Source of the DNA: an uncultured virus (IMG/VR IMGVR_UViG_3300050821_011652)
Taxonomy: Duplodnaviria > Heunggongvirae > Uroviricota > Caudoviricetes
Strand: one strand, 5' to 3'
Virus record (IMG/VR): IMGVR_UViG_3300050821_011652
DNA: 64,000 nucleotides
The notes under the pieces are model-generated. The model saw only the letters and a list, made by a program, of their open reading frames with translations. It was not told the DNA's origin and did no database searches. Made by a program: the position numbers and the translations under genes. The stretch's first letter is position 1. Each line of letters starts with the position of its first letter. Shown here in pieces: positions 10,272 to 24,070 of this stretch.

Positions 10272-11626
10272 CCACCCACGAACAGGTGTGGAACACCTTT
10301 GGTCCACGGGTCATCTGGTACCCGAAGCAGACGAAGTTTTTCTACAATGCCAGTACCGTCCGAGAACACTGGATCGACCCAGGGACCGAGAAGCACCTGC
10401 TCAACCATTTGAAGTTGGGTGGCTTTTACGACGGGATCGTACGGAGTGAAGACCCCGCCCTCAGGGATGTGGCGGACAAGATATTCAAGGAAGAGATAGC
10501 GGAACGGCGCGACAAGTTCTTAGCTCGAGTACAGACGGGGAATACAGTGCAGTGGGTCGGGGAACTGGGCGGCAGGGTCGCCGGTCTTCACCGAGTGGGG
10601 AACCGCCAAATATTACTCCTGCACGGCCCTACATTCCCCACACCGGCCGAGGGCGACTGCTCCTTTGGTCTCAAGATCCTGGAAGAGCTGTTACCCGGTG
10701 ACCAAGCACCTAGGTTCCTCGCCTGGTTGAAGCGAGCGTACCTCGCAATCAAAAATCAGAGTGGCGAAATGGGACAAGCATTGATCGTCGCAGGAGCTTC
10801 CGATAGTGGAAAGTCCCTGCTACAGAAACGCTTTATCACCCCGGTACTGGGCGACCAGGGTGCAGACGCGATCCGATTCCTGATCGGCCAGACGGGCTTT
10901 AATGGAGAGCTGGGGGCGGCCTCCCACTGGATGGTCGATGACCAGGGCGACGCGGTTGGATTCAACCGTCAGGTGTTTTCCGACGCGGTGAAGAAGGCTG
11001 TGGCAGACCCGATGACACGAATAGAGGCCAAAGGGGCCGACGCAATCACCGCGCCCATCTTCCGTCGACTGAGTATCGTGATGAACACAGGGGGAAAGAA
11101 TATGGCCTTACTCCCCGAACTGACCGAGGACATTGCCGACAAATTGATCGTACTGAAATGCGACAAGGTCACCAGTCTGCTAGGATCCACGCCTGAGAAC
11201 AACGCGCGCCTGGTGGCCGACTTGCCGGCGTTTTTATATTGGTTGGAGGGGTATGAACCAGATCCTGAGGTCATGGGTAACCCCAGGTTCGGGACACAGG
11301 CCTACTTCCATCCGGAACTCAAAAGAGAGCTGCAGAGCACCAGCGCCGCGGCAAACCTGCTACCCCTGATAAAGAAGTTGTCGACCCGGTTCGAAGGGGT
11401 CTATGAGGGGACCTCCCAACAGATATACGACGAGCTCCTACAGTCCCCCTCCCGGTTCTTCTTAGAAAAAATCGTGAAGTCAATTCAGCAGTTCGGAAGG
11501 CTCATGACGGAGATCACAAAACTCTATCCAGAGCTGGTGACAAAAAGGGAAACCAAGCACGGCGCGAGGTACAGAATTGTTGTCACCGACGAAAAGCCCG
11601 AAATAAAAACGACAGTTGTTGGGTAA
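10268..11626 (+). CDS. SF3/D5-like (DUF5906-like) replicative helicase
   Basis: Walker A GASDSGKS, Walker B MVDD, IEAKG, sensor VMN. Confidence 0.75.
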   Translation: MTTHEQVWNTFGPRVIWYPKQTKFFYNASTVREHWIDPGTEKHLLNHLKLGGFYDGIVRSEDPALRDVADKIFKEEIAERRDKFLARVQTGNTVQWVGELGGRVAGLHRVGNRQILLLHGPTFPTPAEGDCSFGLKILEELLPGDQAPRFLAWLKRAYLAIKNQSGEMGQALIVAGASDSGKSLLQKRFITPVLGDQGADAIRFLIGQTGFNGELGAASHWMVDDQGDAVGFNRQVFSDAVKKAVADPMTRIEAKGADAITAPIFRRLSIVMNTGGKNMALLPELTEDIADKLIVLKCDKVTSLLGSTPENNARLVADLPAFLYWLEGYEPDPEVMGNPRFGTQAYFHPELKRELQSTSAAANLLPLIKKLSTRFEGVYEGTSQQIYDELLQSPSRFFLEKIVKSIQQFGRLMTEITKLYPELVTKRETKHGARYRIVVTDEKPEIKTTVVG

Positions 11627-11800
11627 AAATCGCCAACAGGTCGCCGTCTCAACGTCAGTTGACGTCACCAGGACAACACTTTTTCGGGTGTTGTCTCCGA
11701 GGGGAATGACAATAGTGACATTGATTTCTTATACTCTCTCTCTCTCTCTCTCTCTTCTCTTATATAAGAAGTAGGTCTCTTGTCATGTCATTTTGTCACC
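11536..11800. other. Putative replication origin (TGACA/TGTCA iterons around a CT run and AT-rich palindrome)
   Basis: TGACA at 11707 and 11716; three TGTCA at 11781-11798; (CT)10 at 11734-11753; TCTTATATAAGA palindrome; directly after helicase gene. Confidence 0.45.
11734..11754. repeat. (CT)n microsatellite
   Basis: 21-nt perfect CT run. Confidence 0.95.
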
Positions 11801-11829
11801 GGCAAAATTTGCCTAGCCCCCCGTCATCC

Positions 11830-12210
11830 TTAATTTCTTGTCGGAGGAGTCGACACCCGCGCTTTGTAAGCCGCGTCAGTTTCACCCGGCAATGGAAGAC
11901 GACCAGTTCGGCGGTTGAAGGCCAAATCGGTTTCATGACCGTCCGCTCTTACTTTTTCGGGTACGGGAGGACGCTCAAAATTCTCTGGATCCCTGGCGAG
12001 TAGGTCAGCGCCGTAGGGGCCGAAGCTGGAGACATTGTTGTCCGTTGTTCCGACGCGGGTGTTGTACGCGGCCTGCGTCTCTCCGGGCAGAGGCTTGTTG
12101 GCTGCTGGAACTGGTGGGGTTAGACCTGGAATTGGTACAGGCGGACGTTGAAAGGTGTCAGGGTGTACCGCCGGAAGGGTTGAACCGTAAGGACCTGGGT
12201 TGTTTGGCAT
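11830..12210 (-). CDS. Pro-rich two-repeat protein paralogous to the C-terminus of the 57614-60775 tail protein
   Basis: Two GPYG..L.A..P..F.RPPVP...PLPGET.AAY..RV units. Confidence 0.75.
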   Translation of the reverse strand: MPNNPGPYGSTLPAVHPDTFQRPPVPIPGLTPPVPAANKPLPGETQAAYNTRVGTTDNNVSSFGPYGADLLARDPENFERPPVPEKVRADGHETDLAFNRRTGRLPLPGETDAAYKARVSTPPTRN

Positions 12211-12218
12211 AGTATGGA

Positions 12219-12247
12219 ACGATATCGTTCAATCTTGCAGCCTGCAA
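12219..12247 (-). promoter_or_regulatory. Candidate sigma70-type promoter for the 12210 gene (near-leaderless)
   Basis: TTGCAG-N17-TATCGT ending 8 nt before the ATG. Confidence 0.35.
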
Positions 12248-12315
12248 TGACCCGTCCGCGGATGCGCACACCGACCCCCTCGACAAGTTTGGGGTGGGTG
12301 TGATACTGTTCCCGT

Positions 12316-12861
12316 ATGGAAGATGAAAGTTCTATACTGGCGGTCCCCCTAAAGAAGCGACGAAAGTCTCGTTGGGGTGATTGGAAGAAGACCGAAAAAG
12401 GTAAACAATATGATAGGAGCTATAAACAGCGCCCCGAAGTTAAGGATCGAGAGAAGGCCCGAAGGGTTCGAAAGAGGGTTCAAAATAGGGCTCGGCACCG
12501 AGAGTTGCGGCGGGATCAAAGAGCTCGGGCTAGAGAGCGAGCGCGTACATGGCTCTCCGAATTTAAGTCTTCGGCTTCTTGTGCCTCTTGCGGATTTTCT
12601 CGTCCGGCCGCACTTCAGTTTCACCATGAGGGGGCGAAAAATAATACGATCCCTGATCTTATGGGCCGGGGCTCTTTGACAGCCCTCAAGCGAGAGATCA
12701 CTTTGTGTGTAGTTCTCTGCGCCAATTGCCACATGATCCTGCATGCGGCTGAGTTGGAGCGGGAGTTGTCTGAAGCGGCCGAGGGGCTAAGGGACTCAAG
12801 GCCGATGACAGATTGGGAGCGAAAAGCGGCTGCAGGATCTTTCTGGTCGGAGTTTGATTGA
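12316..12861 (+). CDS. HNH endonuclease
   Basis: Basic N-terminus; CASC...LQFHH...CVVLCANCH. Confidence 0.8.
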   Translation: MEDESSILAVPLKKRRKSRWGDWKKTEKGKQYDRSYKQRPEVKDREKARRVRKRVQNRARHRELRRDQRARARERARTWLSEFKSSASCASCGFSRPAALQFHHEGAKNNTIPDLMGRGSLTALKREITLCVVLCANCHMILHAAELERELSEAAEGLRDSRPMTDWERKAAAGSFWSEFD

Positions 12862-13316
12862 TGGACATCCAACTCCGGCGGGTCTTGATGACCCGTCAAC
12901 AAGGCTAATTCTAAAAAATCCAAAAAATCTTAGATCCGGTAGAGCAGTTCCCGGGATGTGTGTACCCCCCTGCCGGCACCACGCCCCCGGGTCCGACGCG
13001 CGACTAAAAGACCGCGCGCGAACCGCGACGCGAGCCAAATCCGTATTGGAGGTGTCGGACAGCGATGGCTGAACGAAACGAAAGCCGCGGTTGCGGTGAG
13101 TAGGACACAAACCCGTTCTTTCTCACAGATCATTCGTTCCGCCGGAAGTACCGAGACAAACCGGCTAGCCGATCGAGCCAGAGTAACAAGAGGCTGTGCA
13201 GATCAATCCTTGCGAATGCCACGCTAAGGGGAGTCACAGACGCCGACGGTGAAGGAGATGGGGCGCTTTCTAGCCCGAGCTGAATCAACAGCTCGGACAC
13301 AGAAAGCACCAATACC

Positions 13317-13673
13317 ATGCAACTTGCAACACTAGAGTCATTCGGAATTCAGATCGTCGGCGGCCGTGTAGCGAAGTCCATCAAGGACTCGCTCAAGTCA
13401 CAAGGGCTTAAGGGGCAAGGACTTCGGACGAAGTATTACGAAATCACTCGCGCTTGCGCTGCGGACACATCAGCTGTTCAAGGCGAGTTTGACGCGAGGG
13501 GATTTCTCAAGGAGGTCACCTCGATTCGTCACGACAAGAGTGGCGAGGTCATCGGCGGATCGGTCCGCTACTTTCGCCCGGTCGCGCCCAAGGCTAAGAC
13601 TAAGAGCGAGAAGGACAAGAGGATTGCGGCTCTCGAGAAAGAGCTTGCCGCGATGCGTGCACCCAAAGCCTAA
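13317..13673 (+). CDS. Basic hypothetical protein
   Basis: Preceded by structured GCACCA leader, followed by a hairpin. Confidence 0.65.
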   Translation: MQLATLESFGIQIVGGRVAKSIKDSLKSQGLKGQGLRTKYYEITRACAADTSAVQGEFDARGFLKEVTSIRHDKSGEVIGGSVRYFRPVAPKAKTKSEKDKRIAALEKELAAMRAPKA

Positions 13674-13678
13674 ACACA

Positions 13679-13705
13679 CTGCCGGGCATGACCCGGCAGA
13701 AGTTT
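13679..13705 (+). terminator. Possible intrinsic terminator
   Basis: CTGCCGGG-CATGA-CCCGGCAG hairpin between convergent genes; weak U tail. Confidence 0.4.
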
Positions 13706-13721
13706 AGACTTGTTAGGGCAT

Positions 13722-13762
13722 TATGTCAGTAGCCGAGGGAAGTGTACCAGAATCGTGTACCA
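13722..13762. repeat. Second copy of att half-core plus arm-type pair (direct repeat of 31923-31963)
   Basis: 36/41 identical to 31923-31963; GTGTACCA at 13742 and 13755. Confidence 0.8.
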
Positions 13763-13778
13763 GCGCGCCGAAAACGCG

Positions 13779-14417
13779 CTAGGATGCCTCAGGATCGCTC
13801 GCAAGCTCTGAGCTGGTAGATGACAGCTGTAATGGGCCAATCGATCGAGCCAGGGCCAATTCCGGCCCGCCGTTAAGCACGCTCAGGTTTATTAGTATCC
13901 CTGCTTTCTTTTCATCGTCACGATCTAATCCACGCGCACGAGCACCGGTCTTTTCAATCTTCTCAGCTATTGAAGCAACGGAGTCAGCCTGCATCATAGT
14001 CACGACGCCTTCACTCTGTTCAACCAGGTAGTCGGCGATGCGATCGGTGATGGTGGCGATCTTGTCGCGAAAAGTGTCCTTCCGAGGGAGAATCCCTTTA
14101 ATTCGCTCTTCGGCCGGGATCACCTCAGCCTTTGGGTTTGCAACTTTTTCCGAATTGGGCTCTGTTTTTTGCATGTTTGGCACGATTTGTGCCTGCTTTG
14201 CATCCCTGAGACCCTGAATTTGGCCATCTAAGTGCTCTTGTAATGGGATAAGTATGCGCTTTCTCTGAGCAACCCACCCTTCATCCTTTGCTTTCGATGC
14301 CACGGTATTAGGTGGAATCCCGAATATCTTAGCAATCGTGTGCGTTGAATGCTGACTTGCTAGATATGAGGCCTTTACGCTCTCCCAATCCCACTTTGCC
14401 CTCGCACCTTTTCTCAT
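13779..14417 (-). CDS. terS: Terminase small subunit-like HTH protein
   Basis: KWDWESVKASYL...IAKIFGIPPNTVASKAKDEGW N-terminal HTH; C-terminal ARARGLD. Confidence 0.65.
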   Translation of the reverse strand: MRKGARAKWDWESVKASYLASQHSTHTIAKIFGIPPNTVASKAKDEGWVAQRKRILIPLQEHLDGQIQGLRDAKQAQIVPNMQKTEPNSEKVANPKAEVIPAEERIKGILPRKDTFRDKIATITDRIADYLVEQSEGVVTMMQADSVASIAEKIEKTGARARGLDRDDEKKAGILINLSVLNGGPELALARSIGPLQLSSTSSELASDPEAS

Positions 14418-14597
14418 TTTGCACCCCTGTTACCCTGTGACCCTGTTGCTGTGCGCCAAAGCTGCCAAGTGACAGGGATCGAAGGCACTCTTGGCGCACT
14501 TAGATAAAGAATATCTTGCATCAATACCAATTTTACGCTTTAAGCAGGAACAGTTCAATCCTGTTCCCCCAACCAAAACCAATGCACAGCACCAAAT

Positions 14598-14759
14598 ATG
14601 AAATACAATGTCCCAGTCTACGGCAATGTGACCGTAGAAGCCTCGTCTGAAGACGAAGCGATCGAAAGAGTCAAGAGAGCCATGCACGGCGAACTCAACA
14701 ACGTCTCACTAAACGTTTTGCGTTCTCTCGAAATCGGCAGTGATGTTTATCCGTTATGA
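14598..14759 (+). CDS. Small hypothetical protein
   Basis: GCACCAAAT-ATG leader; VEASSEDEAIE pattern. Confidence 0.65.
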   Translation: MKYNVPVYGNVTVEASSEDEAIERVKRAMHGELNNVSLNVLRSLEIGSDVYPL

Positions 14760-15049
14760 AACCAGAACCAAAGTTCAAACCAATCCATCCCGAGGGCGCA
14801 CACTACGATCACGACTGTGACGCCTGCACATTTTTAGGAACTTGGCGCGGTGACGCTAAGCACGGCGCCGGCATTCACGACCATGACCTGTATTACTGCG
14901 GCGGCCGATGGCCGACGGTAATTGCTCGCTGTTCATCTGAGGGCAGCGATTACATGAGCGGCATAGTTTTTCGAACTCACAATCCTGCGATTGAAGAAGG
15001 GTGTAAGCGAGCTGAAGCGCTCGGTTTGAATTTGAAGCGCGGCGATTAA
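14756..15049 (+). CDS. Phage hypothetical protein
   Basis: HDCDACTFLG...DLYYC...TVIAR; coupled. Confidence 0.65.
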   Translation: MKPEPKFKPIHPEGAHYDHDCDACTFLGTWRGDAKHGAGIHDHDLYYCGGRWPTVIARCSSEGSDYMSGIVFRTHNPAIEEGCKRAEALGLNLKRGD

Positions 15050-15051
15050 TC

Positions 15052-15130
15052 GGAACGGGCGACGCACCAATTGTCGCCCTGTTCCCCTGCACCCCTGAAC
15101 CCCAACAATTCAGTACCCTAGCACCAAATG
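15052..15130 (+). promoter_or_regulatory. Structured leader element, partial (P1 + CCCTG array + GCACCA)
   Basis: GGAACGGGCGAC/GTCGCCCTGTTCC stem; GCACCAA-ATG. Confidence 0.7.
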
Positions 15131-15376
15131 ACCACCGAACACGAAAACCTATCCCGCATTCAAGAGCTCGTGTATGAGCTCGTTGAACTTGAGAAAGATC
15201 CCGAGCGCAAGAAAAACCTCAAAGCCGATTTAGCGAGCTCGACCGATTGGTTTGGCTCACTGCAAAGTATCCGGGAGTTTTGTCATGACTTCGAGGATGA
15301 AATTAAAGAGCGGCTCAATTGGCATTATTACATCGCCGAAGAGTATATCGACGCGAACCCGGCGGATCCAGAATGA
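15128..15376 (+). CDS. Acidic hypothetical protein
   Basis: ORF after leader element. Confidence 0.65.
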   Translation: MTTEHENLSRIQELVYELVELEKDPERKKNLKADLASSTDWFGSLQSIREFCHDFEDEIKERLNWHYYIAEEYIDANPADPE

Positions 15377-15543
15377 AAGCCAGCGAACTAATCCAACGAC
15401 TAAACGAACTAATCGCCGAGCATGGTGACCGCGACATCGTCTATCCTGACAATTCTGAACGCTCTTATGGTCCGCTTGAGGCGGATGAAGTTGATGAGTA
15501 CGAGCATTGGGATCACAAGACAATCCAATTTTATATTCGATGA
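15373..15543 (+). CDS. Small hypothetical protein
   Basis: MKASELIQRLNELIAEHGD; coupled. Confidence 0.65.
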   Translation: MKASELIQRLNELIAEHGDRDIVYPDNSERSYGPLEADEVDEYEHWDHKTIQFYIR

Positions 15544-15551
15544 GAGCGAGT

Positions 15552-15695
15552 GAACGGGCGAGAGCGGATGTCGCCCTGTTCCCCTGTGGCTCTGCGATAA
15601 ACCTCTACAGTACCTAAGCCGGTTTAAGTCCGGAGTCGCAGGGTCACAGGGGAGCAATAAAGCTCCGCGAACAAGAAACAAGAAAAAGACATATG
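15552..15695 (+). promoter_or_regulatory. Three-hairpin leader element copy (lacks GCACCA)
   Basis: P1, P2 CCCTGTGGCTCTGCGA/TCGCAGGGTCACAGGG, P3 GGAGC/GCTCC. Confidence 0.75.
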
Positions 15696-16016
15696 ACATA
15701 CGTGAAAAGAGACGAACAGGTCGACCTCAAATTCGAGGGTGACCTGATAGCAAAAGCGAGCAGCCGTTCAGTCAACGGCCCGAATCAAAATCGGTGGACT
15801 GAGATGAAGCTGTACAAAACCAAAAGCGGGAAATTCGTTATCGGGATCGCCGGCATAACCATCTGGCAGGGTGAGCATGACCGATACTCAGGTTATACAT
15901 GTAAGGACGAGAATGAAGTGGTGAAGGCTCTAATCGATCACAACGAGGGAGAGCTCAGCTGGTTGGCCAAGGAGCTATTGGGTGAGGCGGGAATTGATTC
16001 CGCTGAGGAAGTTTAA
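15693..16016 (+). CDS. Phage hypothetical protein
   Basis: FEG.LI...SS...RWTE.KLYKT..GKFV pattern. Confidence 0.65.
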   Translation: MTYVKRDEQVDLKFEGDLIAKASSRSVNGPNQNRWTEMKLYKTKSGKFVIGIAGITIWQGEHDRYSGYTCKDENEVVKALIDHNEGELSWLAKELLGEAGIDSAEEV

Positions 16017-16023
16017 ACGGGAT

Positions 16024-16136
16024 GGAACGGGCGAAACGGATGTCGCCCTGTTCCCCTGTGGCTCTGCAACCACGCACCCCAAATGCACGGTCGCAGGGCT
16101 ACAGGGGAGCATTAAGCTCCAAAGCACCAAAATATG
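16024..16136 (+). promoter_or_regulatory. Three-hairpin leader element copy
   Basis: P1-P2-P3 then AAAGCACCAAAAT-ATG. Confidence 0.8.
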
Positions 16137-16430
16137 AAACTATTCAAAATATCCCAAACCGTGAACGGAGGGTATGACACATATGACTCAGTGGTCGTAT
16201 GCGCTGAGGATGAAGAAGCAGCTCGAAGGATCCATCCGATGGGGGAAAACAACACTTATTTTCTGGATGAAGAGGACACCTGGATGCTGCGGCTCATCAA
16301 GGGCGGAGTTGTTCCTTACGGTGGTGGGGAGCGGGCGTGGGCACTTCCTAAAGATGTGATCGTTGAGTATCTAGGAGAAGCGCAGGGATGGAAGCACGGG
16401 GTTATTGTCGCGTCGTTTAACGCGGGGTAG
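16134..16430 (+). CDS. Phage hypothetical protein
   Basis: GYDTYDSVVVCAEDEEAARRIHP...VIVASFNAG. Confidence 0.7.
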   Translation: MKLFKISQTVNGGYDTYDSVVVCAEDEEAARRIHPMGENNTYFLDEEDTWMLRLIKGGVVPYGGGERAWALPKDVIVEYLGEAQGWKHGVIVASFNAG

Positions 16431-16444
16431 GAGAAAGCACCAAT

Positions 16445-16630
16445 ATGACCACCGACGAATTAATTGCGTTGTACCGTAAGAAAGCGGCACAAAAACCAGG
16501 CTTTGACCAACTGCCGCTGGACGAGCAGCGCTACGAAGTGACCCTGCTTTTGGCAAAAAAGGTCATGAGCTTAGCGCGCGAATTGCACAAGCTGAATCCG
16601 AAGGGTTTGTATTTGAGAAAGGATTTATAG
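16445..16630 (+). CDS. Hypothetical protein
   Basis: GCACCAAT-ATG leader. Confidence 0.6.
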   Translation: MTTDELIALYRKKAAQKPGFDQLPLDEQRYEVTLLLAKKVMSLARELHKLNPKGLYLRKDL

Positions 16631-16633
16631 AAT

Positions 16634-16774
16634 ATGATCTGTACCCGATGCAACAAAGGCGAAGCGTTAGCGCCGCATTCCTGCCCCTATGCTGAAGAAC
16701 TCGATGGCATCCACGATGATGAGTTTTGTGATTGCTGCGAAGATTGTACGGATTACTGCGCGGAGTGTATATGA
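16634..16774 (+). CDS. Cys-rich small protein
   Basis: MICTRC...HSCPY...CDCCEDC...C. Confidence 0.6.
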   Translation: MICTRCNKGEALAPHSCPYAEELDGIHDDEFCDCCEDCTDYCAECI

Positions 16775-16947
16775 CCCTTTACCGCGTTAAAACTAGCAGC
16801 GGCGAGATCGATTCTATCTATGATTCCTACGTTGAAGCGAAGGAGCGCTTTAGCCAATTGATCGAGTCGGATGGCTTTTATGAGATCACGCTCTCAGAGT
16901 TAGAGGTCGTGAATGAACAAGAGATTGAAAATTGGATCGACGATTGA
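16771..16947 (+). CDS. Small acidic protein
   Basis: Coupled ATGA start. Confidence 0.55.
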   Translation: MTLYRVKTSSGEIDSIYDSYVEAKERFSQLIESDGFYEITLSELEVVNEQEIENWIDD

Positions 16948-17078
16948 TATGAACACCGAACAGAAATATAAGATTCTCTTGGAATTTGTGAGGGAATTGT
17001 TATGGAAGCATTCGCGTATTCCCTGCCGGTGGAGGCCGTGGGCGTATCGCGTATTAAGAGAGATAGGAGAAGAGTGAT

Positions 17079-17417
17079 ATGAACCAAAACACTTTTTGCC
17101 AAATATGCCGTAAGCCGAGCCCACAGCATGACCCGGACTGCCCGGTTAAAACTGGCCGGCCAGTTACCTCGCTTCAGAGTCAAATGGCCGATGGGTCGAT
17201 ATTTCAACAACAGAACGGAATGTTGGGACAGATGGGTCAAATCCGCGACCCCAAACGCATTGATGACATTCTAGACGCCCTGAAACTCTACTGGAAAGAA
17301 AACCCGGATCTGCGGCTAACTCAGATTATCGGGAACTGTTTCGGGCCACACGAACTTTATTATTACGAGGATGAGGAATTTTACCAATACCTTTTAACCA
17401 CAAAGGATCGACAATGA
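17079..17417 (+). CDS. Zn-finger plus DUF1040-like protein
   Basis: CQIC..H..C; RDPKRID.IL..L..YW...PDLRL.QII. Confidence 0.55.
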   Translation: MNQNTFCQICRKPSPQHDPDCPVKTGRPVTSLQSQMADGSIFQQQNGMLGQMGQIRDPKRIDDILDALKLYWKENPDLRLTQIIGNCFGPHELYYYEDEEFYQYLLTTKDRQ

Positions 17418-17586
17418 CCTACAAATACTACGAACTTGAATTTGAGAAACGCGACGATATTCCCTCCGTGTTCCTAAACGACACGATGAACCAATTGGCG
17501 TTCGAGGGTGAGGTTCTGCTCGCCTTTGACGATGGGTTTGGGGTTGAATCAACTCCCGATATGGAATGGTAATGTTCCACGGGTAC

Positions 17587-17705
17587 GGAACGGGGTGTGA
17601 CCTTGCACCCCTGTTCCCCTGTGATCCGGCAACCTTGTTATCTTTCCACCGGGTGGAAGGACCGCAGGGTCACAGGGGAGCAAAAACGCTCCAAGCACCA
17701 ATATG
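17587..17705 (+). promoter_or_regulatory. Three-hairpin leader element copy
   Basis: P1 covaried to GGGGTG/CACCCC; P2; P3; AAGCACCAAT-ATG. Confidence 0.8.
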
Positions 17706-17996
17706 AAGATCAAAGAATTGTTTAGTGATCAGTCCAAATGGACGAAGAAAACCGCCGCTCGAGATGCGAGTGGGACTCCTGTTTCGCCGTCCGATTCAGA
17801 CGCTGTTTGCTGGTGTCTGGCGGGAGGGGTTGCAAAGTGTTATCCGGGCGAAGAACGGTATAAGGTCCACGACGCAATCGTGGAGAAGTTATCCGGATCA
17901 GCCCAAGGCTATGGTTATGGATCGGCGTACGGCGACTGGAATGACCGGGCGTCGTTTGAAGAGGTGAAGGCGTTAGTTGAGCAATTGGATATATAA
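17703..17996 (+). CDS. DUF6197-like protein, paralog 1
   Basis: IKELFSD..W...AVCWCL.G...WND. Confidence 0.65.
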   Translation: MKIKELFSDQSKWTKKTAARDASGTPVSPSDSDAVCWCLAGGVAKCYPGEERYKVHDAIVEKLSGSAQGYGYGSAYGDWNDRASFEEVKALVEQLDI

Positions 17997-18000
17997 ATAC

Positions 18001-18161
18001 GGAAGGGGCGGCTTCCTTGTCGCCCTGTTCCCCTGCACCCACGTACCTTAAGGCGCGAGACAAGACGGGAGTTCACCACGGTTGAATGAACTAACCCATG
18101 GTCGCGAAAATGCGTGGGTGCAGGGGAGCAAAAACGCTCCAAGCACCAATCCAATTATATG
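18001..18161 (+). promoter_or_regulatory. Three-hairpin leader element copy with long P2 insert
   Basis: P2 CCCTGCACCCACGTA/TGCGTGGGTGCAGGG; P3; GCACCA. Confidence 0.8.
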
Positions 18162-18314
18162 AAGACAATCGTATTACCATCTACCCTATTGAGAGCACTC
18201 AAGAAGGGCAAAATTGATCCGGAGACTCGGGCTGAGGCACTGAGTCTATACTTCCGCTCTAACCGGCGGTTCTTTAACTGCCCTTCCGTTCGAACCGCGG
18301 GGAGGGTGAGATGA
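18159..18314 (+). CDS. Small basic protein
   Basis: ORF after leader element. Confidence 0.55.
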   Translation: MKTIVLPSTLLRALKKGKIDPETRAEALSLYFRSNRRFFNCPSVRTAGRVR

Positions 18315-18688
18315 CCTTAGGGCCAAAACAAAGGATCTGGGTCGATGCGCTCAGGTCTGGTGAATATAAGCAGGGCGATGGTTGTCTCTTTGATCCGGAG
18401 ACGCAGTCATATTGCTGTCTAGGCGTTGCCAATTGCGTCCTCGAGTTGGGGGAAGGCGACGAGCACGTGTTGGAATACACTTACCAGCAGTTAGGGCTAA
18501 GGGGTCAGTCCGGCGCGATCGTGGGCTTAAGTCTCGAAGCTTTTAAAGAGCTGCATGACCTCCCGGCCGGGTATGATCCGACATTCACAATTGAACTAAC
18601 GGCGCTCAACGATCGGGGTTGGTCGTTTTCTAAAATCGCCGATCTAATCGAGCAGCACCCACACTGGGTGTTTGAAAGGAGCGTATGA
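18311..18688 (+). CDS. Phage hypothetical protein
   Basis: WVDALRSGEYKQG...YCCLGV...ND.G.SF..IADLIE. Confidence 0.7.
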   Translation: MTLGPKQRIWVDALRSGEYKQGDGCLFDPETQSYCCLGVANCVLELGEGDEHVLEYTYQQLGLRGQSGAIVGLSLEAFKELHDLPAGYDPTFTIELTALNDRGWSFSKIADLIEQHPHWVFERSV

Positions 18689-18969
18689 CCATCAAGGAAT
18701 TATTCAGCGATCCGGCGCGGCACACGCGGTTTTACTACGCGGAAACCGCGGAGAACAAAGATTGCGGGGCACTTGCTCCAGATGCGGTGCGCTGGTGTTT
18801 GGCTGGCGCGTTAACTAAGTGTTATCGCAATGACTCGGAACGCGAATGGGCTGAGGACGCATTAAGAGCAGCGGCCATGGGAATCTTCGGCACTCTCGAC
18901 TTTGTGATAATCAATGATCACAAACCGTTTGAAGATGTGATGAAACTTGTGGAGGCAGCCGGCGTGTGA
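18685..18969 (+). CDS. DUF6197-like protein, paralog 2
   Basis: TIKELFSD...AVRWCLAGA...IND. Confidence 0.65.
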   Translation: MTIKELFSDPARHTRFYYAETAENKDCGALAPDAVRWCLAGALTKCYRNDSEREWAEDALRAAAMGIFGTLDFVIINDHKPFEDVMKLVEAAGV

Positions 18970-19227
18970 AAAAACAGGGACGGAGAACCCCCCGGTTTCC
19001 CGTCCCTGCTTCAGTTATCCTCAATCCCAAACCCACTCAGGCTTGGGACACCGACTTTGGAGTACTGAAAGAGGTAAGTCAATATGAATAAAAGAATAAG
19101 AGAGTCATGTCGAACGTGAAATCAAAGAAGCTGAGGTCAGCGTGTGTCAACTGGAGGCGAAGCTTGTGGCCCTCTATAGGATTCTGAACGTTATCAAAAT
19201 CGAGGAAGCTAACGAGGCGAAGTAAAC

Positions 19228-19321
19228 GGAACGGGGTGCGCGCCTAGCACCCCTGTTCCCTTGATCCCGTACGATCACTCCGTATTGGATCAGGGGAGCA
19301 GAAAGCTCCGCACCAAATATG
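19228..19321 (+). promoter_or_regulatory. Three-hairpin leader element copy (shortest)
   Basis: P1, P2 CCTTGATCC/GGATCAGGG, P3, GCACCAAAT-ATG. Confidence 0.8.
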
Positions 19322-19693
19322 AATATCTATCAAAAACTATACCGCGGGATCAAGGATCACTGCGAGCTTGAAGACGACGCGATAATCGATGCGGGCCGGC
19401 ACGGCGCTGACGCTGGTTGGGGCGGTTTCTCTTACACCAAGGATTGCTGTGAGTTTTACGAAGCCAACAAGGAGGAGATTTGGGAGTTGCTGCGTGAGGC
19501 TGCTGATGGGCAAGGACTGAAGCCGCTTGAGCTTGTAGCGCAGTTCGGTCGTAGCGACATGGCAGATGACCCTGACGGGCTAGAGAACCTACTAGCCTGG
19601 TTTGCGCTAGAAGAAGTGGGACGCTGGCTGGAAGACAATCGGTCGGAGGGTGATGATTTTGAAGAGGAAGAGGAGTCGGACGAAAAGGATTGA
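19319..19693 (+). CDS. Acidic protein, possible DNA mimic
   Basis: GGFSY...FY...NLLAWFALEEV; acidic tail DDFEEEEESDEKD. Confidence 0.6.
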   Translation: MNIYQKLYRGIKDHCELEDDAIIDAGRHGADAGWGGFSYTKDCCEFYEANKEEIWELLREAADGQGLKPLELVAQFGRSDMADDPDGLENLLAWFALEEVGRWLEDNRSEGDDFEEEEESDEKD

Positions 19694-19770
19694 CTTTCAC
19701 CAAGTATTGAATAGACCAAATCCATAACAAAAGGAGCAACTGAACGATTAGGTAGAACTTGAGTGAGTGT

Positions 19771-19895
19771 GAGCGGGGGACGTGGAACTCCCCCGTTCCT
19801 TCCAGCCTCGAGATTAAATCATAGCCGGATCCAAAGCGCTTTGGAGGGGCCGGTACGGGGTTGGAAGGAGCGAAAGCGCTCCGCACCAAAATATG
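19771..19895 (+). promoter_or_regulatory. Diverged three-hairpin leader element copy
   Basis: Different sequence, same fold: GAGCGGGGGA/TCCCCCGTTC, CTTCCAGCCTCG/CGGGGTTGGAAG, GGAGC/GCTCC, GCACCAAAAT-ATG. Confidence 0.75.
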
Positions 19896-20159
19896 AAGAA
19901 ACTAATATTATGTTTGTTATTGCCAGCCGTGAACGCGGTGGCTTTTGATCCATACGGCGCGGATGACAGTGTGCCAGTAACACGGTTCCAGTTTATGGGG
20001 CACGGGATTGTTATCACATATGGGACTCACCATACGTACGACGGGTATCGCAAATTATACGACGCCTTTATTGATGGTCATTCGACCTCGATACAATTTC
20101 AAAACTCCGTAGGGGAGGAGATTCAAGCAGTGATGAGTGATCTCCAGGGGGCGAAATGA
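19893..20159 (+). CDS. Small secreted protein
   Basis: MKKLILCLLLPAVNAVA signal peptide. Confidence 0.6.
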   Translation: MKKLILCLLLPAVNAVAFDPYGADDSVPVTRFQFMGHGIVITYGTHHTYDGYRKLYDAFIDGHSTSIQFQNSVGEEIQAVMSDLQGAK

Positions 20160-20344
20160 AGACCCTTCCGTCCGGGCCAGAACCTAGACCTACAGTCTGG
20201 GTCGTTCTTTGCCGCTTCGATTATGAAGGTGATTCAGTGGAGTGCATCTTTTCAAATGAGGCTGCGGCGATGGAATATAGAGAACAACGTCAGCAGGAAG
20301 ATAAGTGGTATCAGTATCTGGTCGAAGAGTGGGAGGTGAAATGA
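20156..20344 (+). CDS. Small hypothetical protein
   Basis: VWVV...DYEG...IFS...A...EEWEV; coupled. Confidence 0.6.
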   Translation: MKTLPSGPEPRPTVWVVLCRFDYEGDSVECIFSNEAAAMEYREQRQQEDKWYQYLVEEWEVK

Positions 20345-20538
20345 ACATTCCCCCCGAACATTATTACGAGGCCGAGTTTGAAGGCGCGCCGTGCCCGACG
20401 GTTCAGGAAGAGATGGCTTTAAGTCGAATAGTGGAGGAGGGAGAGCGGCTGCTTCGATACCAAGCAATTATTCGATTCGTGCCCATCGTCGTCATTATCC
20501 TCGGGATAGTGTTGATGATCGCTAGTGACTGGATCTAA
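20341..20538 (+). CDS. Small membrane protein
   Basis: C-terminal TM helix; coupled. Confidence 0.55.
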   Translation: MNIPPEHYYEAEFEGAPCPTVQEEMALSRIVEEGERLLRYQAIIRFVPIVVIILGIVLMIASDWI

Positions 20539-20608
20539 CCCGCGACACCGCCCTCGGTATGGAACGATCGAGGTCGGTACGCGAGATAGACTCGCAAAGC
20601 ACCAAAAT

Positions 20609-21037
20609 ATGAAAACACCATTTAAACACGTCGGTTCCGTTTCACACGGAACCTTACGGCCGGAGGATTTAGTTCCTACCTTCGCCATCTTGTTATATAA
20701 ACTCGATCCTGAGCACTTCCCCGAGCGACACCCGGTCGATCTGGAGGAAGAGGTGGAGTGGCTGATTGATCGACTAAACGATTACGCGCCGCCCTACTTC
20801 TATTTCGGCGCCCATCCGGGCGACGGATCGGACTTCGGGTTCTGGTTCGATGAAGAATCATTCGAACAGGCCGTGGCGGACGGAGAGATAGTTAAACTCG
20901 CCGGTCTACCAGACTTCGAACGCATCCGCGATGACTATGGTGAGTGGAACGGGGTGTTCTATGTCGCGGTCATCTCTGACCACGGCAACATCTCGCTCTA
21001 TGATCTAGATGGAGAGGAGCTGTGGGCAATCGTATGA
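20609..21037 (+). CDS. Acidic phage protein
   Basis: GCACCA leader; SHGTLRPEDL...YFGAHPGDGSDFGFW. Confidence 0.7.
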   Translation: MKTPFKHVGSVSHGTLRPEDLVPTFAILLYKLDPEHFPERHPVDLEEEVEWLIDRLNDYAPPYFYFGAHPGDGSDFGFWFDEESFEQAVADGEIVKLAGLPDFERIRDDYGEWNGVFYVAVISDHGNISLYDLDGEELWAIV

Positions 21038-21318
21038 CCATCAAGGAATTACTATCCGATCGGGCCAATTGGGCTCAACACGATTACGCGTACAGGGCAG
21101 ATGGGGAGGGGTGTTGGGGGACGGACAAAAACGCAGTTTGTTGGTGCCTCTTAGGAGCGGTTGATAAAGTTTATCCCGGGCTTGAAGGGGCAGTTAAGGG
21201 AAAGATAGGGGACGCCATTCGGAAGCTGTACCCCGAGCGAGTTATAGGCGCGGCCGATGTGAATGACGAATTAGGGTACGAGGCGGTGATGAAGGTCGTG
21301 GAGGAGGCGGGAGTATGA
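21034..21318 (+). CDS. DUF6197-like protein, paralog 3
   Basis: TIKELLSD..W...AVCWCLLGA...ND. Confidence 0.65.
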   Translation: MTIKELLSDRANWAQHDYAYRADGEGCWGTDKNAVCWCLLGAVDKVYPGLEGAVKGKIGDAIRKLYPERVIGAADVNDELGYEAVMKVVEEAGV

Positions 21319-21509
21319 CCCAACTCGCCGAGTTAGCCGACGCTGAAGTTGAGACGGTCAGGAAGCTCTTTCGCAAGCACGAACACTGGCACGGTTTGGA
21401 TTACGCCGAGCGATCGATTTACCGAAAGCTGTGGCCGGTGAAGGCGAAGGAAACGCCCTGTCACTGCGGAGAGTGTGAGCAGTGCTGTCCTTCGGTAAGA
21501 CCATTGTAA
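21315..21509 (+). CDS. Small Cys-rich protein
   Basis: CHCGECEQCC; coupled. Confidence 0.5.
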   Translation: MTQLAELADAEVETVRKLFRKHEHWHGLDYAERSIYRKLWPVKAKETPCHCGECEQCCPSVRPL

Positions 21510-21519
21510 CCCTGTGCTT

Positions 21520-21924
21520 ATGTCACCCTGCATTGAGTGGAAAGGGACTCTCCGCGACAAGGATGGTTACGGGCGTCGGAAGTATAGAGGGAAAGTGTGG
21601 CAAGCCCATCGAGCAGCTTGGCATGAATGCAAAGGAGAAATCCCAAAGGATTTGTGGGTGCTTCATCGATGTGACAATCCAGCCTGTGTGCGGGTAAGTC
21701 ATTTGTTTCTCGGCACCCACCAGGATAATGAGGACGACAAATGTAGAAAGAATCGTCAGTCCAAAGGAGAGGGACACCGAAATGCGAAGTTGATTCAGAT
21801 TGATGTGGACTTGATTAGAGGTTTGTATTCAACCGGAGAGTTTCAGCAGAAAGAGCTAGCTGGAATGTTCCGGGTCGGCCAAAACCAGATATCGCGCATT
21901 GTCCGGCACGAAGAGTGGGCCTGA
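21520..21924 (+). CDS. HNH homing endonuclease with C-terminal HTH
   Basis: CIEW.G...GYG...AHR...VLHRCDNPACV..HLFLGT..DN. Confidence 0.85.
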   Translation: MSPCIEWKGTLRDKDGYGRRKYRGKVWQAHRAAWHECKGEIPKDLWVLHRCDNPACVRVSHLFLGTHQDNEDDKCRKNRQSKGEGHRNAKLIQIDVDLIRGLYSTGEFQQKELAGMFRVGQNQISRIVRHEEWA

Positions 21925-22035
21925 GTTCCTGTCGCCCTGCACCCCTGTTACAAATCCTCTACACTTATTGATAAGTGGCGACGTTTTGTAACGGCGGGGG
22001 CCGGGCTGAGGGATTTAGAAATCCCGCACCAAAAT

Positions 22036-22203
22036 ATGAATGAATCCAGAACAAAAGAATTCATCGAGCTGATCGCTCGAATGACCAAAGACGGAGAAGA
22101 GGTAGATGGCGAGGAGTTTATTATGGAGAACGACGACGCCGTGTACATCCTCAATGGTTTGATCCATGAGGCTAGAAGCTTGTTGGGGGTGAAAGATGAA
22201 TAA
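22036..22203 (+). CDS. Small acidic protein
   Basis: Hairpin plus GCACCAAAAT-ATG leader. Confidence 0.6.
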   Translation: MNESRTKEFIELIARMTKDGEEVDGEEFIMENDDAVYILNGLIHEARSLLGVKDE

Positions 22204-22708
22204 GTATTATGTCGGTTTCGGGTTCTCTACTTTCATAGAAGCCGAGAGTGAGGAAGAGGCGGTAAAGAAGGCTGAAAAAGCGCTGGCCGAAAATGGCTAC
22301 GCTGTGCATGTACAAAAAGTATGACCACACTTCAGGAAGGTCGGCCTACGTCGGGGTGGTAATCATTAAGCCGCTACACTGCCCGGGGCTATAGGCCCTC
22401 GGCAGTAAGCAGTTTAAACTGCAAGCACCAAAATATGAATAAAACATCAAAGACAGAATTCCTTGACTTCGAAGCACAATCTCCGCCACTCTCGAGTGGT
22501 TCTGAGTGTTTCAGAAGCAGAGCAGTTGGAGTTAGAACTAGATCATGACGATTCACATGCCTATGACGGGTTAAAGTCCTTCGGGCTCTTAATCCATGGG
22601 TCACAGCGGGGCGGTTCAATCGCTTCAAAGGCAGTCAGGGAGCTGAAGGGATTAGGATCCTATTCCCGCGAGGCGTAACCCTCAAAACGCATTTTTACCG
22701 GTAAAAAT

Positions 22709-22861
22709 ATGGACATCTTTTGGCTAGGATTTTTGTTTGGCGCGCTATCCTGCGCCTTTGTCTGGATATTGCTCACCTTCATCGCAATTTGCATGCTCTC
22801 TAGATCCTCTCTTGTGGAGGAATGCCCGGCGGATGAAACCGCCGAAACTAAACTTTCATAG
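22709..22861 (+). CDS. Small membrane protein
   Basis: N-terminal TM; preceded by 18-bp palindrome. Confidence 0.5.
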   Translation: MDIFWLGFLFGALSCAFVWILLTFIAICMLSRSSLVEECPADETAETKLS

Positions 22862-22866
22862 GTGCA

Positions 22867-22906
22867 AAGGGGGCTCTCCCAATCGGGGAGGGCCCTCTTA
22901 CCTTTC
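22867..22906 (+). terminator. Possible intrinsic terminator
   Basis: AAGGGGGCTCTCCC-AATC-GGGGAGGGCCCTCTT hairpin then pyrimidine run. Confidence 0.45.
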
Positions 22907-22938
22907 ACACTTCGGAACTTTGGAACACTTGGAACAAC

Positions 22939-23181
22939 ATGAAATATAAGATCGCGACGTCTCTCGACGTCACATTTAATGACAATTTCGAACAGATTCG
23001 AGATGAGTTTACGGCGGCGGTAGGCGACGAGTCTCCCGACCGGATTGTTAGTGCTGGTATCGAATTGATGCAGGCCTATTCAATTAGGCTTGAGTTTTTA
23101 ATGCATTCTCTCCAGGATCATCTGGATGATTTGTCAAAAGTGCTATCTGCGCTACGAGGCAGGAGTGAGGGGGAAGAATGA
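22939..23181 (+). CDS. Hypothetical protein
   Basis: ORF in + strand array. Confidence 0.55.
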   Translation: MKYKIATSLDVTFNDNFEQIRDEFTAAVGDESPDRIVSAGIELMQAYSIRLEFLMHSLQDHLDDLSKVLSALRGRSEGEE

Positions 23182-23356
23182 ACACAGAGCAAGAAAAAGT
23201 GATAAAGCTCCTTATGCGAGGAGAGTCGCCGGAGGACCTGAAAGATGATTTCGGATCTGAAGTGGTTGAGGAAGCAATAGCGAAATTAGAGGAAAGAATT
23301 TAGTTGCACAAGATATGGAACAATGTATATCCATATCGCAAGCACCACCCAATCAA

Positions 23357-23650
23357 ATGGATCAACTCACATCCCGAGTCTGGCGGGCTATTTCAAACGC
23401 AGACGCTCTTCCCTTCTTCCTCGAGCTCTTAGACGGCTCCGAGGGTCCTGAAGTAGCGGAGTCCTTGAGAGAGTTCTTTTTAGACGAAAATGAGAAAGTC
23501 GAATGGAGTGAGTCCGTCCCGGACGTTCTTCAATCCCTTCTCACCGATAGCTTGGAGTTGGTGGAGTGGGAACTAATCGCCCGCAAGTGGAGGGATCTTA
23601 TGGGCATGATCGAGGAGTATCAGGAAATCGTTCGGGGGGTGGAGGATTGA
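23357..23650 (+). CDS. Acidic hypothetical protein
   Basis: GATATGGA/TCCATATC hairpin plus GCACCA leader favours ATG 23357. Confidence 0.6.
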   Translation: MDQLTSRVWRAISNADALPFFLELLDGSEGPEVAESLREFFLDENEKVEWSESVPDVLQSLLTDSLELVEWELIARKWRDLMGMIEEYQEIVRGVED

Positions 23651-23982
23651 GAACCCCACAAAGGCAAAAGGAATCTGACGCGTTACTTCAATACTTCCAG
23701 TACGCTTTCAAACAGGGAAAGCTGATCTCGATCCCGGTGGTGGATACGCAGAACGTGGAGAAAGAGGAGTGGATGATAATCTCGAAGGAAGGGCAAAAGG
23801 GATACCCTCTGGCGCTTTTGATGTTGGATCCGGTCGAGGCGGCGGCCAGGTATCCAGCAATGGTCACCGCTCCGTCCGACACGCCTTTAAAGGACGAACT
23901 GGAGAAGCGGGAGCCGAAGGGTACGCCTGCGTTAGATAAAGCGGCGAGGGCGGGGAAGATGAGACGAAAAAGGAAGTCCTAG
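23647..23982 (+). CDS. Hypothetical protein
   Basis: TTG start overlapping upstream stop. Confidence 0.5.
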   Translation: MRTPQRQKESDALLQYFQYAFKQGKLISIPVVDTQNVEKEEWMIISKEGQKGYPLALLMLDPVEAAARYPAMVTAPSDTPLKDELEKREPKGTPALDKAARAGKMRRKRKS

Positions 23983-24070
23983 AAAAGCGGAAGCCGAGGT
24001 TATGACGACCTCGGCTTCCAAGCACCAAATTATGAATGACAGCCATACGATAACGGCTTCTGGCCGCACG

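Follow-up and report, generated by a model that had tools for sequence, protein, structure and literature searches.

A repeated three-hairpin element with a conserved leader before start codons in an uncultivated soil podophage

In the genome of an uncultivated and probably temperate soil podophage (IMG/VR record IMGVR_UViG_3300050821_011652), a run of co-oriented small genes at 13.3-24.0 kb contains a repeated structured element, always on the + strand, and the question raised by this locus is what such an element does between the stop codon of one gene group and the start codon of the next. An initial annotation had described the element as three abutting stems ahead of GCACCA and an ATG, and had offered three roles for it: a cis-regulatory RNA, an integron-like boundary of gene cassettes, or a scaffold releasing small RNAs. 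We analyzed the whole stretch of DNA, hereafter the window, which comprises 64 kb of a 76,861-bp contig to which the phage's own proteins match; about 12.9 kb of the contig lie outside it. The element is known from this one uncultivated genome, and what is said below of its function is deduced from its sequence and predicted fold.

Copies, fold and leader of the element

Six full copies, one partial copy and several looser ones were found, all on the + strand. A full copy consists of three abutting hairpins, P1, P2 and P3, of which P1 has a bulged T, P2 is long with a variable interior, and P3 is short; a leader and then an ATG follow. The six full copies and the partial copy lay where the initial annotation had placed them and were confirmed by sequence, by folding and by the covariance-model scores given here in bits.

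15551 to 15695, + strand: full element; P1 15551-15582, P2 15583-15650, P3 15651-15666; ATG 15693; 110 bits
16024 to 16136, + strand: full element; P1 16024-16054, P2 16055-16105, P3 16106-16120; leader AAAGCACCAAAAT; ATG 16134; 95.5 bits; minimum-energy structure is the three hairpins
17587 to 17705, + strand: full element; P1 17587-17617, P2 17618-17676, P3 17677-17692; leader; ATG 17703; 98 bits; minimum-energy structure is the three hairpins
18001 to 18161, + strand: full element; P1 18001-18031 with one G-G mismatch, P2 18032-18124, P3 18125-18140; leader; ATG 18159; 101 bits
19228 to 19321, + strand: full element; P1 19228-19259, P2 19260-19294 with rewritten arms, P3 19295-19309; leader; ATG 19319; 69.5 bits; minimum-energy structure is the three hairpins
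19770 to 19895, + strand: full element; P1 19771-19798 without the bulge, P2 about 19799-19867, rewritten and with two G.T pairs, P3 19867-19882; leader; ATG 19893; 83.5 bits
15052 to 15130, + strand: partial element; P1 15052-15085, its loop containing GCACCAATT; leader GCACCAA; ATG 15128; 23.4 bits, E 2e-4
14547 to 14600, + strand: first leader of the array; minimal P1-like hairpin GGAACAG-7 nt-CTGTTCC at 14547-14567, C/A-rich spacer, GCACCAAAT, ATG 14598
20547 to 20611, + strand: loose copy; P2-like hairpin 20547-20578, P3-type hairpin GCGAG/CTCGC 20581-20595, leader, ATG 20609
21925 to 22038, + strand: loose copy; CCCTG words 21927-21947, long hairpin, P3-type hairpin GGGATT/AATCCC 22010-22025, leader, ATG 22036
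22376 to 22437, + strand: loose copy; P2-like hairpin, P3-type hairpin GCAGT/ACTGC 22409-22422, leader, ATG 22435
23988 to 24034, + strand: hairpin plus leader; single 13-bp hairpin 23988-24020, AAGCACCAAATT, ATG 24032, the likely true start of a 215-residue open reading frame (ORF)
13275 to 13319, + strand: hairpin plus leader; 8-bp hairpin 13275-13296, 9-nt spacer, GCACCAATACC, ATG 13317
16437 to 16447, + strand: leader without hairpin, GCACCAAT-ATG, 14 nt past the previous stop; the sole leader on a tightly packed gene

The whole element measured 94-161 nt with a P1 of 31-34 nt, the gene units between elements contained 1-7 ORFs each, and the spacer sequence totaled an estimated 1.2 kb. The P3 stem GGAGC/GCTCC was unchanged in all six full copies (GGAGC-N3-8-GCTCC occurred 6 times with 0.5 expected), and P2 had 8-17 contiguous pairs with further pairs past internal loops in every one of them, the shortest being that at 19260 (8 + 5). 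The bulged T said to mark most P1 stems was present in six of seven, with copy 19770 lacking it; GCACCA preceded the ATG in the other full copies but not in copy 15551, which carried an A-rich tail in place of the GCACCAA leader. The partial copy at 15052 had CCCTG words (15073-15097) without a 3' partner and no P3. That each copy begins just after a stop codon held for five of the seven P1 stems, which lay 2-14 nt past the stop of a real ORF, but not for copies 19228 and 19770, at distances of 258 and 77 nt. When the covariance model of the full copies was run over the 64 kb, no further full copy emerged, only the partial one at 23 bits. The looser leaders annotated near 20540, 21930 and 22340 did have the leader and a P3-type hairpin, but the hairpin sequence was different and nothing else was common to them; across the looser copies, P3 was replaced in the same place by GCGAG/CTCGC, GGGATT/AATCCC, GCAGT/ACTGC or the 13-bp stem. 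The looser leader annotated near 18975 proved to be a different thing, with its arms in reverse order, no leader, and the look of a minus-strand terminator. This hairpin (CAGGGACGG...CCGTCCCTG, 18976-19009, with A6 before it) begins a 349-nt gap on the + strand (18970-19318) without any ORF of at least 30 residues and resembles an intrinsic terminator of the minus strand; further minus-strand terminator-like hairpins lie at 24020-23988 and 13699-13679, within plus-strand gene territory.

Folded alone, three of the six full copies had the three abutting hairpins as their minimum-energy structure, and in the other three this fold was within 0.8-2.3 kcal/mol of it. RNAalifold, run de novo, returned the same three hairpins with 26 pairs, 11 of them with compensatory change. 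In an alignment that was fitted to the structure model, the supplied 31-pair structure had 92.5% of cells able to pair, compared with 82.7% in shuffles and 38-51% when the partners were slid; both sides had changed in 14 of the 31 pairs versus 6.2 +/- 1.7 in shuffles, a value reached by none of 500 shuffles, although these counts are not independent events because the six copies are paralogs with partial sequence exchange. The covarying pairs comprised three in P1 (inner stem GGGCGA/TCGCCC, GGGGTG/CACCCC or GGGGGA/TCCCCC) and 11 in P2. The pairing is thus kept by compensatory change, as the initial annotation had claimed, and a structured repeat with maintained pairing is real and well supported.

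The annotation had also taken the + strand to be the folded one because most imperfect pairs are G-T on that strand, and the data agreed. Under a strand-neutral rule, the isolated non-Watson-Crick stem positions comprised 12 G.T, 1 A.C and 5 other; with less neutral rules, the + strand had 19 wobbles and 9 mismatches and the - strand 11 wobbles and 20 mismatches. Fold z-scores of the six full copies ranged from -4.7 to -7.3 on the + strand and from -1.9 to -4.8 on the - strand, and the covariance model scored the same places at 69-110 bits on + and 13-34 bits on -. From the excess of G.T over A.C, the z-scores and the model scores, we conclude that the + strand, which is the mRNA sense, is the folded one, either as RNA or, on the strand evidence alone, as single-stranded + DNA.

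The modules of the element formed a mosaic. Copy 17587 was nearest to 19228 in P1 (88%) and nearest to 15551 and 16024 in the P2 arms (75-88%); copies 17587 and 18001 had an identical P3 hairpin. P1 identity between copies was 58-91%, and the P2 interiors were unrelated. Copies 15551 and 16024 had in common a 44-nt stretch of 95% identity with one gap, and the contigs of one sequencing run, possibly the one from which this DNA came, broke exactly at this near-identical stretch (15566-15594, 16038-16066), which indicates that the repeat is long enough to break short-read assembly graphs.

The constant core of the element is P3 followed by the leader, (A)AGCACCAA-N0-9-ATG, with (A)AGCACCAA(A)(A)(T) as the fuller form of the leader. 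On the + strand between 13.3 and 24.0 kb, GCACCAA occurred 14 times; 13 of these sat 0-9 nt before an ATG, and one lay in the P1 loop of the partial copy. The combination GCACCAA-N0-8-ATG had 12 matches where 1.2 were expected. The five other matches to GCACCAA, on the minus strand at 29666, 30670, 32031 and 21141 (the last within a gene) and on the plus strand at 61511, were not at starts. To relate the leader to gene spacing, we mapped 36 + strand genes in the region and called a gene packed if it overlapped the previous gene or lay no more than 14 nt from it. The leader preceded 12 of 15 genes that followed a non-coding gap of at least 70 nt versus one of 21 packed genes; a Shine-Dalgarno-like word, by contrast, was found for 14 of the 21 packed genes (background 0.18) and for one of the 13 leader genes (window -16 to -3). 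Packed downstream genes mostly start by Shine-Dalgarno-like sites, or else by 4-nt overlaps. All 13 leader genes start with ATG, 10 of them continuing with AAN. A scan for perfect hairpins of at least 5 bp that end 0-3 nt before the leader found one at eight of the 13 leaders, compared with 2.2% of window positions; the 13-bp hairpin at 23988-24020, which is outside the scan rule, raises the leader-abutting hairpins to 9 of 13, and a hairpin of any kind lay upstream of 12 of 13. The grammar of the element is therefore hairpin, leader and ATG, to which P1 and P2 are added in a subset only. The start codons themselves were checked with three DUF6197 paralogs at 17703, 18685 and 21034 (Pfam; similar 5' ends), of which only that at 17703 begins at a leader, those at 18685 and 21034 having internal starts; as all three begin M(K/T)IKEL directly at that ATG, the leader ATG is the true start. 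This constant core of P3 and leader, found for 13 genes, was absent from the initial annotation, as were the 8-nt CCCTG words and the competition of P1 and P3 for GTTCC described below.

The element matched no known RNA family. Rfam 15 gave no match at gathering score over the whole window, so that no known Rfam family removes its novelty; at E <= 5 over 13000-25000 there were six chance-level matches of 15-26 bits, against gathering scores of 39-88, and the sole sub-threshold match overlapping an element was mir-125 on the minus strand at 20.9 bits. Relatives were sought in phage records, IMG/VR, JGI metagenome contigs and GTDB genome contigs, and the only matches were to the phage itself or by chance. 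Neither a megablast search with 14000-23000 nor a tblastn search with one structural protein found anything among 50,697 phage records. A 14-mer scan of IMG/VR matched at least 117 stretches, and among the matches listed there were single matches only, probably by chance; a pattern of P3 plus leader gave two chance matches there. In the JGI metagenome contigs, a P1/P2...P2/P3 pattern gave five single chance matches without features of the element, together with one contig 100% identical to positions 10002-29299 of the window. The 17-nt leader matched at least 120 stretches in GTDB genome contigs, as single matches in assorted phyla, which we took as chance. The phage's primase-helicase had no relative above 35% identity, and 16 IMG/VR loci with primase relatives of 25-28% identity held no match to the covariance model. 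On one IMG/VR contig with a 27%-identical primase-helicase (L133), seven tandem copies of CCCTATGAC, a 9-mer, run into an ATG start codon at 4742-4826 and are preceded by three looser 11-nt units; another IMG/VR contig (L132) has CCCTATGCAAA three times. These arrays are a possible parallel to the short-word arrays of the phage element.

A proposed role in punctuating early mRNA

The reading that we favor, and to which we give slightly less than an even chance, is that the element punctuates a long early mRNA, in which P1 and P3 would cap the RNA ends, P2 would be a nuclease target and P3 would in addition expose the start. The + strand genes from about 14.6 to 22.9 kb, plus a few on either side, would be read as long early or accessory transcripts, in which each element would act as a punctuation cassette, occupying the space between the stop codon of one group and the ATG of the next. 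P1 would become a protective 3' hairpin for the upstream RNA piece. P2 would be the substrate of a double-strand-specific endonuclease of the RNase III type, its interior being discarded; we propose this role because P2 is long and its interior unconstrained. P3 would become a protective 5' hairpin and insulate the A/C-rich leader as a single strand, so that ribosomes could start at the exposed leader without a Shine-Dalgarno site. One shared factor, from phage or host, may read all 13 starts as a regulon; the conservation of the leader goes far beyond what ribosome binding requires, which suggests a shared reader.

A cis-acting RNA fits best because of the plus-strand fold, the co-orientation of the genes, the stop-to-start placement and the long P2 duplex; all seven copies and all 13 leaders were on the same strand as the genes. 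Of the three roles offered initially, the cis-regulatory RNA is the one best served by these features, in the form of processing, stability or start-site control, and an RNA-level role of whatever kind appears to us somewhat probable. The early RNase III sites of phage T7 provide the obvious comparison. They are irregular intercistronic hairpins along a polycistronic early transcript, and cutting leaves a protective 3' hairpin; they resemble each other, and each is a single hairpin with an internal loop. To our knowledge, they have neither a three-hairpin layout nor a fixed leader associated with starts. An irregular duplex of about two helical turns is typical of such sites; the figures to set beside it here are the 8-17 contiguous pairs of P2 and its further pairs past internal loops. 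The element here likewise consists of intercistronic hairpins repeated along a putative early transcript, and its position and strand fit the comparison, with both the transcript across the elements and its cleavage being presumed.

Several points weigh against this proposal. A search of sequencing runs found the sequence in no RNA run and only in three soil DNA runs, which contain the identical sequence in whole or in part; any transcript, RNA end or cleavage is thus postulated. The evidence comes from one genome, with the dependence among its six paralogous copies noted above; fold-back DNA repair could homogenize hairpin arms too, and G.T pairs are tolerated in single-stranded DNA as well. 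In copy 19228, the P2 at 19260 is short (8 + 5 pairs). CCCTG words without a hairpin partner occur at 14421 and, inside a gene, at 25755, and an RNA fold does not explain them. The full copy at 15551 and three genes after long gaps are without the leader. Finally, the model does not itself explain why the leader is invariant, for which the trans-acting reader is postulated.

The fold offers one further possibility. The outer 3' strand of P1, GTTCC, has two possible partners: GGAAC, with which it forms P1, and GGAGC, the 5' strand of P3. Pairing with the latter extends P2 and opens P3, and the two folds differ by at most 2.3 kcal/mol. As the alternative pairing is invariant in the six copies, covariation cannot test it. 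The start of P1, at 2-14 nt past the stop codon in five of seven copies, appears to be within reach of a terminating ribosome, and since the fold energies are nearly equal and the stop lies just before P1, such a ribosome could flip the fold. The element could then be a bistable RNA switch and cassette boundary in one: a ribosome terminating 2-14 nt before P1 would melt GGAAC, GTTCC would pair with GGAGC, and P3 would open, so that the expression of each gene group would depend on translation of the preceding group. The 13 genes would form a private regulon free of Shine-Dalgarno sites, read at the invariant GCACCAA of every start by one phage or host factor, and the conserved modules would double as crossover points at which whole groups are swapped between phages. 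We regard this elaborate version as quite unlikely.

Alternative readings of the element

Most of the remaining probability lies with readings in which the element is a site for DNA-binding proteins, a transcription signal, a recombination linker or a selfish repeat. The first of these starts from the C-rich arms, which are built of 8-nt words ending in CCCTG (TCGCCCTG, TTCCCCTG, CACCCCTG, TGACCCTG), the 3' arms of P2 being their mirror images. CCCTGNNNCCCTG with at most one mismatch occurred 29 times where 4.6 were expected, nearly always at 14.2-25.8 kb; the exact 13-mer CCCTGTTCCCCTG occurred six times; and GCACC, the core common to words and leader, occurred 33 times on the + strand where 10.6 were expected. 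Three further features bear on the words.

14421 to 14445, + strand: CCCTG words without a hairpin partner, three to four octamers, directly upstream of the start of the minus-strand helix-turn-helix (HTH) gene
13779 to 14417, - strand: HTH DNA-binding protein, 212 residues, diverging from the + array that starts at 14598
25755 to 25783, + strand: four perfect CCCTG words at 8-nt spacing, inside a P450-like ORF

If the 8-bp word, in direct arrays of two to four and in mirrored arrays, is the real signal, then a phage protein, perhaps the HTH protein, may bind it to silence or block the early region in the manner of the stoperators of mycobacteriophage L5, or the arrays may be iterons or a packaging site, and the potential to form hairpins would be a side effect of the mirrored arrays. 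The hairpin-less array in the divergent gap, adjoining the HTH gene start, and the four-word array inside a gene both speak for it; the HTH protein, weakly similar to regulators as well as to small terminase subunits, might be what reads the words. Stoperators are asymmetric and in a single orientation; they are plain duplex sites without flanking pairing and are spread over the whole genome. The words here, in contrast, belong to conserved hairpins and are confined to one region. The likeness is to the L5/Cluster A sites, which PMC3203893 mentions as 13-bp sites in transcription regulation: here too there is a 13-bp asymmetric word, in one orientation, in short gaps, with words near a divergent regulatory gap. 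What argues against DNA binding is that the pairing outlasts the loss of the words, as copy 19770 has no CCCTG yet retains P1 and P2, and as the arms at 18032 and 19260 have been rewritten. In six of seven copies the bulged T prevents the 5' arm of P1 from truly mirroring the word; the spacing of the arms, from 27 to 85 nt, is unsuited to a fixed protein dimer; and the excess of G.T over A.C is unexpected for duplex DNA sites. Binding of a DNA-level protein as the main function is therefore unlikely in our view.

What the array inside a gene encodes also argues against DNA binding. The ORF at 25370-26395 (+; 341 residues) looks like a short cytochrome P450 (features 0.97, structure TM 0.80), with a C-terminal FGGGxHxCPGxxL-like motif, and has two homologs of 63% and 43% identity, the former on a 34.8-kb contig; in IMG/VR it had no relative. 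The array at 25755-25783 encodes residues 129-138, ALHPCDPVPL, and since the motif ALHPCxPVPL is kept in both homologs, the array is not an insertion. It is, at least in part, a coincidence of coding, or else the result of sequence exchange. An origin of replication inside an initiator gene was considered for the four words and rejected, since the gene resembles a P450 and the residues that the four words encode are conserved. On the minus strand, 14421-14450 reads as a leader of the HTH gene, (CAGGGNNN)x3 ending in CAGGGGTGCAAAATG, which is complementary to the CCCTG arms; a transcript of this leader and the plus-strand element transcripts could therefore pair.

Alternatively, the element may carry signals for transcription: P1 and/or P2 as a terminator or attenuator joined to a start signal, as in the PeSL cassettes of T4-type phages, or P3 as a hairpin promoter like those of phage N4. 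PeSLs (PMC2839356; PMC4122927) are cassettes about 100 nt long that occupy the space between stop codon and ATG in ORFan regions, whose copies exchange parts and whose GC-rich stem-loops terminate transcription (PMC2839356). The placement among small ORFans is the same here, and the element is likewise a repeated composite of about 100 nt with GC-rich stem-loops and G-T pairs that ends in a translation start signal, with mosaic modules that hint at the exchange of parts by recombination. The 5-bp P3 hairpin, fixed at 0-3 nt before a conserved sequence, and the presence of a 2773-residue virion protein would suit an N4-like promoter. A PeSL, however, has a strong sigma-70 promoter, a Shine-Dalgarno sequence and one stem-loop, whereas our element has three hairpins, no promoter consensus and no Shine-Dalgarno sequence. 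Sigma-70-like matches numbered 16 with 16.0 expected over 12500-32400, and none was in an element, although this consensus may not be that of the host. No hairpin of any element was followed by a T-run. The 0-9 nt between leader and ATG suit a ribosome site better than a promoter, from which the 5' leader would be a few bases long, and no RNA polymerase family was found in the 2773-residue protein or the other scanned ORFs of the window (Pfam, PHROGs). We consider transcription signals rather improbable.

We are equally doubtful that the copies are recombination linkers, that is, homology patches or folded single-strand sites for the tyrosine recombinase encoded at 27436-28491, through which gene groups would be swapped as cassettes. 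Integron attC sites, to which the initial annotation had loosely likened the copies, measure 57-141 nt, have R''/R' boxes of the form RYYYAAC ... GTTRRRY and accompany one promoterless ORF each. The element is like them in being an imperfect palindrome after ORFs, in a co-oriented array, with one folded strand, an extrahelical base (the bulged T), an AAC/GTT triplet at the base of P1 and a variable terminal part. It differs in that its boxes read (A/C)(C/T)GGAAC ... GTTCCCC, so that the stem base does not conform to GTTRRRY; P1, at 31-34 nt, is too short; there are three separate hairpins; the units hold 1-7 genes rather than one; and the leader is fused to the next ATG. Moreover, the recombinase is generic rather than of the integron type, scoring 20.8 bits with TIGR02249 (cut-off 265) and at best 63.9 bits with XerD (cut-off 329.6). 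The mosaic modules and the 44-nt stretch of 15551 and 16024 do point to exchange, and PeSL-mediated shuffling and mini-circles are documented for T4-type phages (PMC2839356). When cassette junctions were looked for, however, the contigs of the three soil runs had no joints, deletions or alternative gene orders and were identical wherever they covered the region; no relative for a comparison of gene order was found in the collections searched. Homology patches need neither conserved pairing nor a G.T bias. The integron-like boundary is thus unsupported, and its weaker form, the homology patch, survives on the mosaic modules.

It is very doubtful that the element is a selfish or neutral repeat, a portable hairpin-plus-leader made of tandem short words and kept only for its usable start site. 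Its arms are indeed built from 8-nt words, but no copy had target-site duplications (longest flank match no more than 5 nt in 7 of 7), and no transposase or RAYT-like gene was seen in the protein scans. With the P1 identities and unrelated P2 interiors given above, the copies are diverged, unlike a recent burst, and their pairing is kept by compensatory change; they are confined to one strand of one region, and for so compact a phage genome about 1.2 kb of spacer is a considerable cost. The release of the P2 interiors as small guide RNAs, for which one could cite that each interior is unique and flanked by conserved stems, is extremely improbable, since the interiors matched nothing else in the window beyond chance matches of 9-13 nt and self-complementarity, and no CRISPR-like or other effector gene was found in the protein scans of the window.

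Genome setting, closest analogs and implications

From 1 to about 28.8 kb of the window the genes are encoded on the + strand, apart from the HTH gene, and from 29 to 64 kb they are encoded on the - strand. Besides the tyrosine recombinase, the phage encodes a podophage GP4-type head/fiber domain, an endolysin, the 2773-residue virion protein, a helicase, a DUF5906 primase-helicase, a split family-A DNA polymerase and five HNH endonucleases. ARAGORN found no tRNA or tmRNA genes in the window, and no acceptor-stem partner was read in the sequence 5' of P1; the element is therefore not tRNA-like. The family-A polymerase consists of two ORFs (4414-5478 and 5466-6335, +) that correspond to successive segments of a single PHROG profile and share 13 nt in different reading frames, with an HNH endonuclease gene (6332-6775) directly after them; a gene that is split, a frameshift or a fault in the assembly could each account for this arrangement. 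A non-coding stretch of 455 nt (12862-13316) separates an HNH gene from the first gene with a leader; it has an A-rich patch and GC-rich palindromes, and an origin and a non-coding RNA are possibilities for it. The 2773-residue ORF (32352-40673, -) has a SprT-like zincin motif at residues 1179-1221, a metalloprotease-like stretch at 1523-1569 and a match to a virion-structural PHROG at 2049-2501; it had no sequence match in the PDB, and scans with Pfam and PHROGs found no polymerase family in it. At 22912-22938 (+), after a terminator-like hairpin at about 22868-22900, three GGAAC pentamers with 8-9 nt spacing (TCGGAACTT TGGAACACT TGGAACAAC) lead straight to an ATG at 22939; GGAAC is also the 5' base of P1.

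In form, the closest analogs of the element are the start-associated sequences (SAS) and extended start-associated sequences (ESAS) of Cluster K and Cluster EF actinobacteriophages. As described in the reports on Cluster K mycobacteriophages (PMC3203893) and Cluster EF Microbacterium phages (PMC7302621), the SAS is a short asymmetric motif in one orientation, a few bases before the ATG of 10-19 non-structural genes; it contains the Shine-Dalgarno core AGGAG, resembling GGGATAGGAGCCC or GGGAAAGGACCCC, and about half of the sites carry upstream inverted repeats, the ESAS, with a variable spacer. The ESAS authors held that departures in the repeats do not support RNA pairing and favored DNA-binding proteins (PMC3203893). 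Like the SAS, the 13 motifs here have one orientation, lie 0-9 nt before the ATG of a subset of the non-structural genes and are better conserved than a ribosome site needs; as with the ESAS, hairpins lie upstream, at 12 of the 13 leaders, 9 of them abutting at 0-3 nt. In contrast to the SAS, however, the leader GCACCAA is without a Shine-Dalgarno core, the motifs have no sequence similarity and the spacers here are much longer; and in contrast to the ESAS, the pairing here is kept by compensatory change, with a G.T bias. As it matches no catalogued RNA family and no published element was found to correspond to it, the element is best filed among the phage intergenic regulatory cassettes.

Little is understood of how small early-region phage genes of unassigned function are expressed in groups and exchanged as such. 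In actinobacteriophages, start-associated sequences have been on record since 2011 without a mechanism, and the upstream repeats there did not resemble RNA hairpins. Here, a start-associated leader is coupled to hairpins whose pairing is kept on the mRNA strand, and this combination of leader and maintained hairpins makes an RNA-level mechanism directly testable, whether it acts through processing, protection of ends, exposure of the start site or a switch coupled to translation. If the proposed role is true, the element would offer a compact natural insulator with which multi-gene transcripts could be built.

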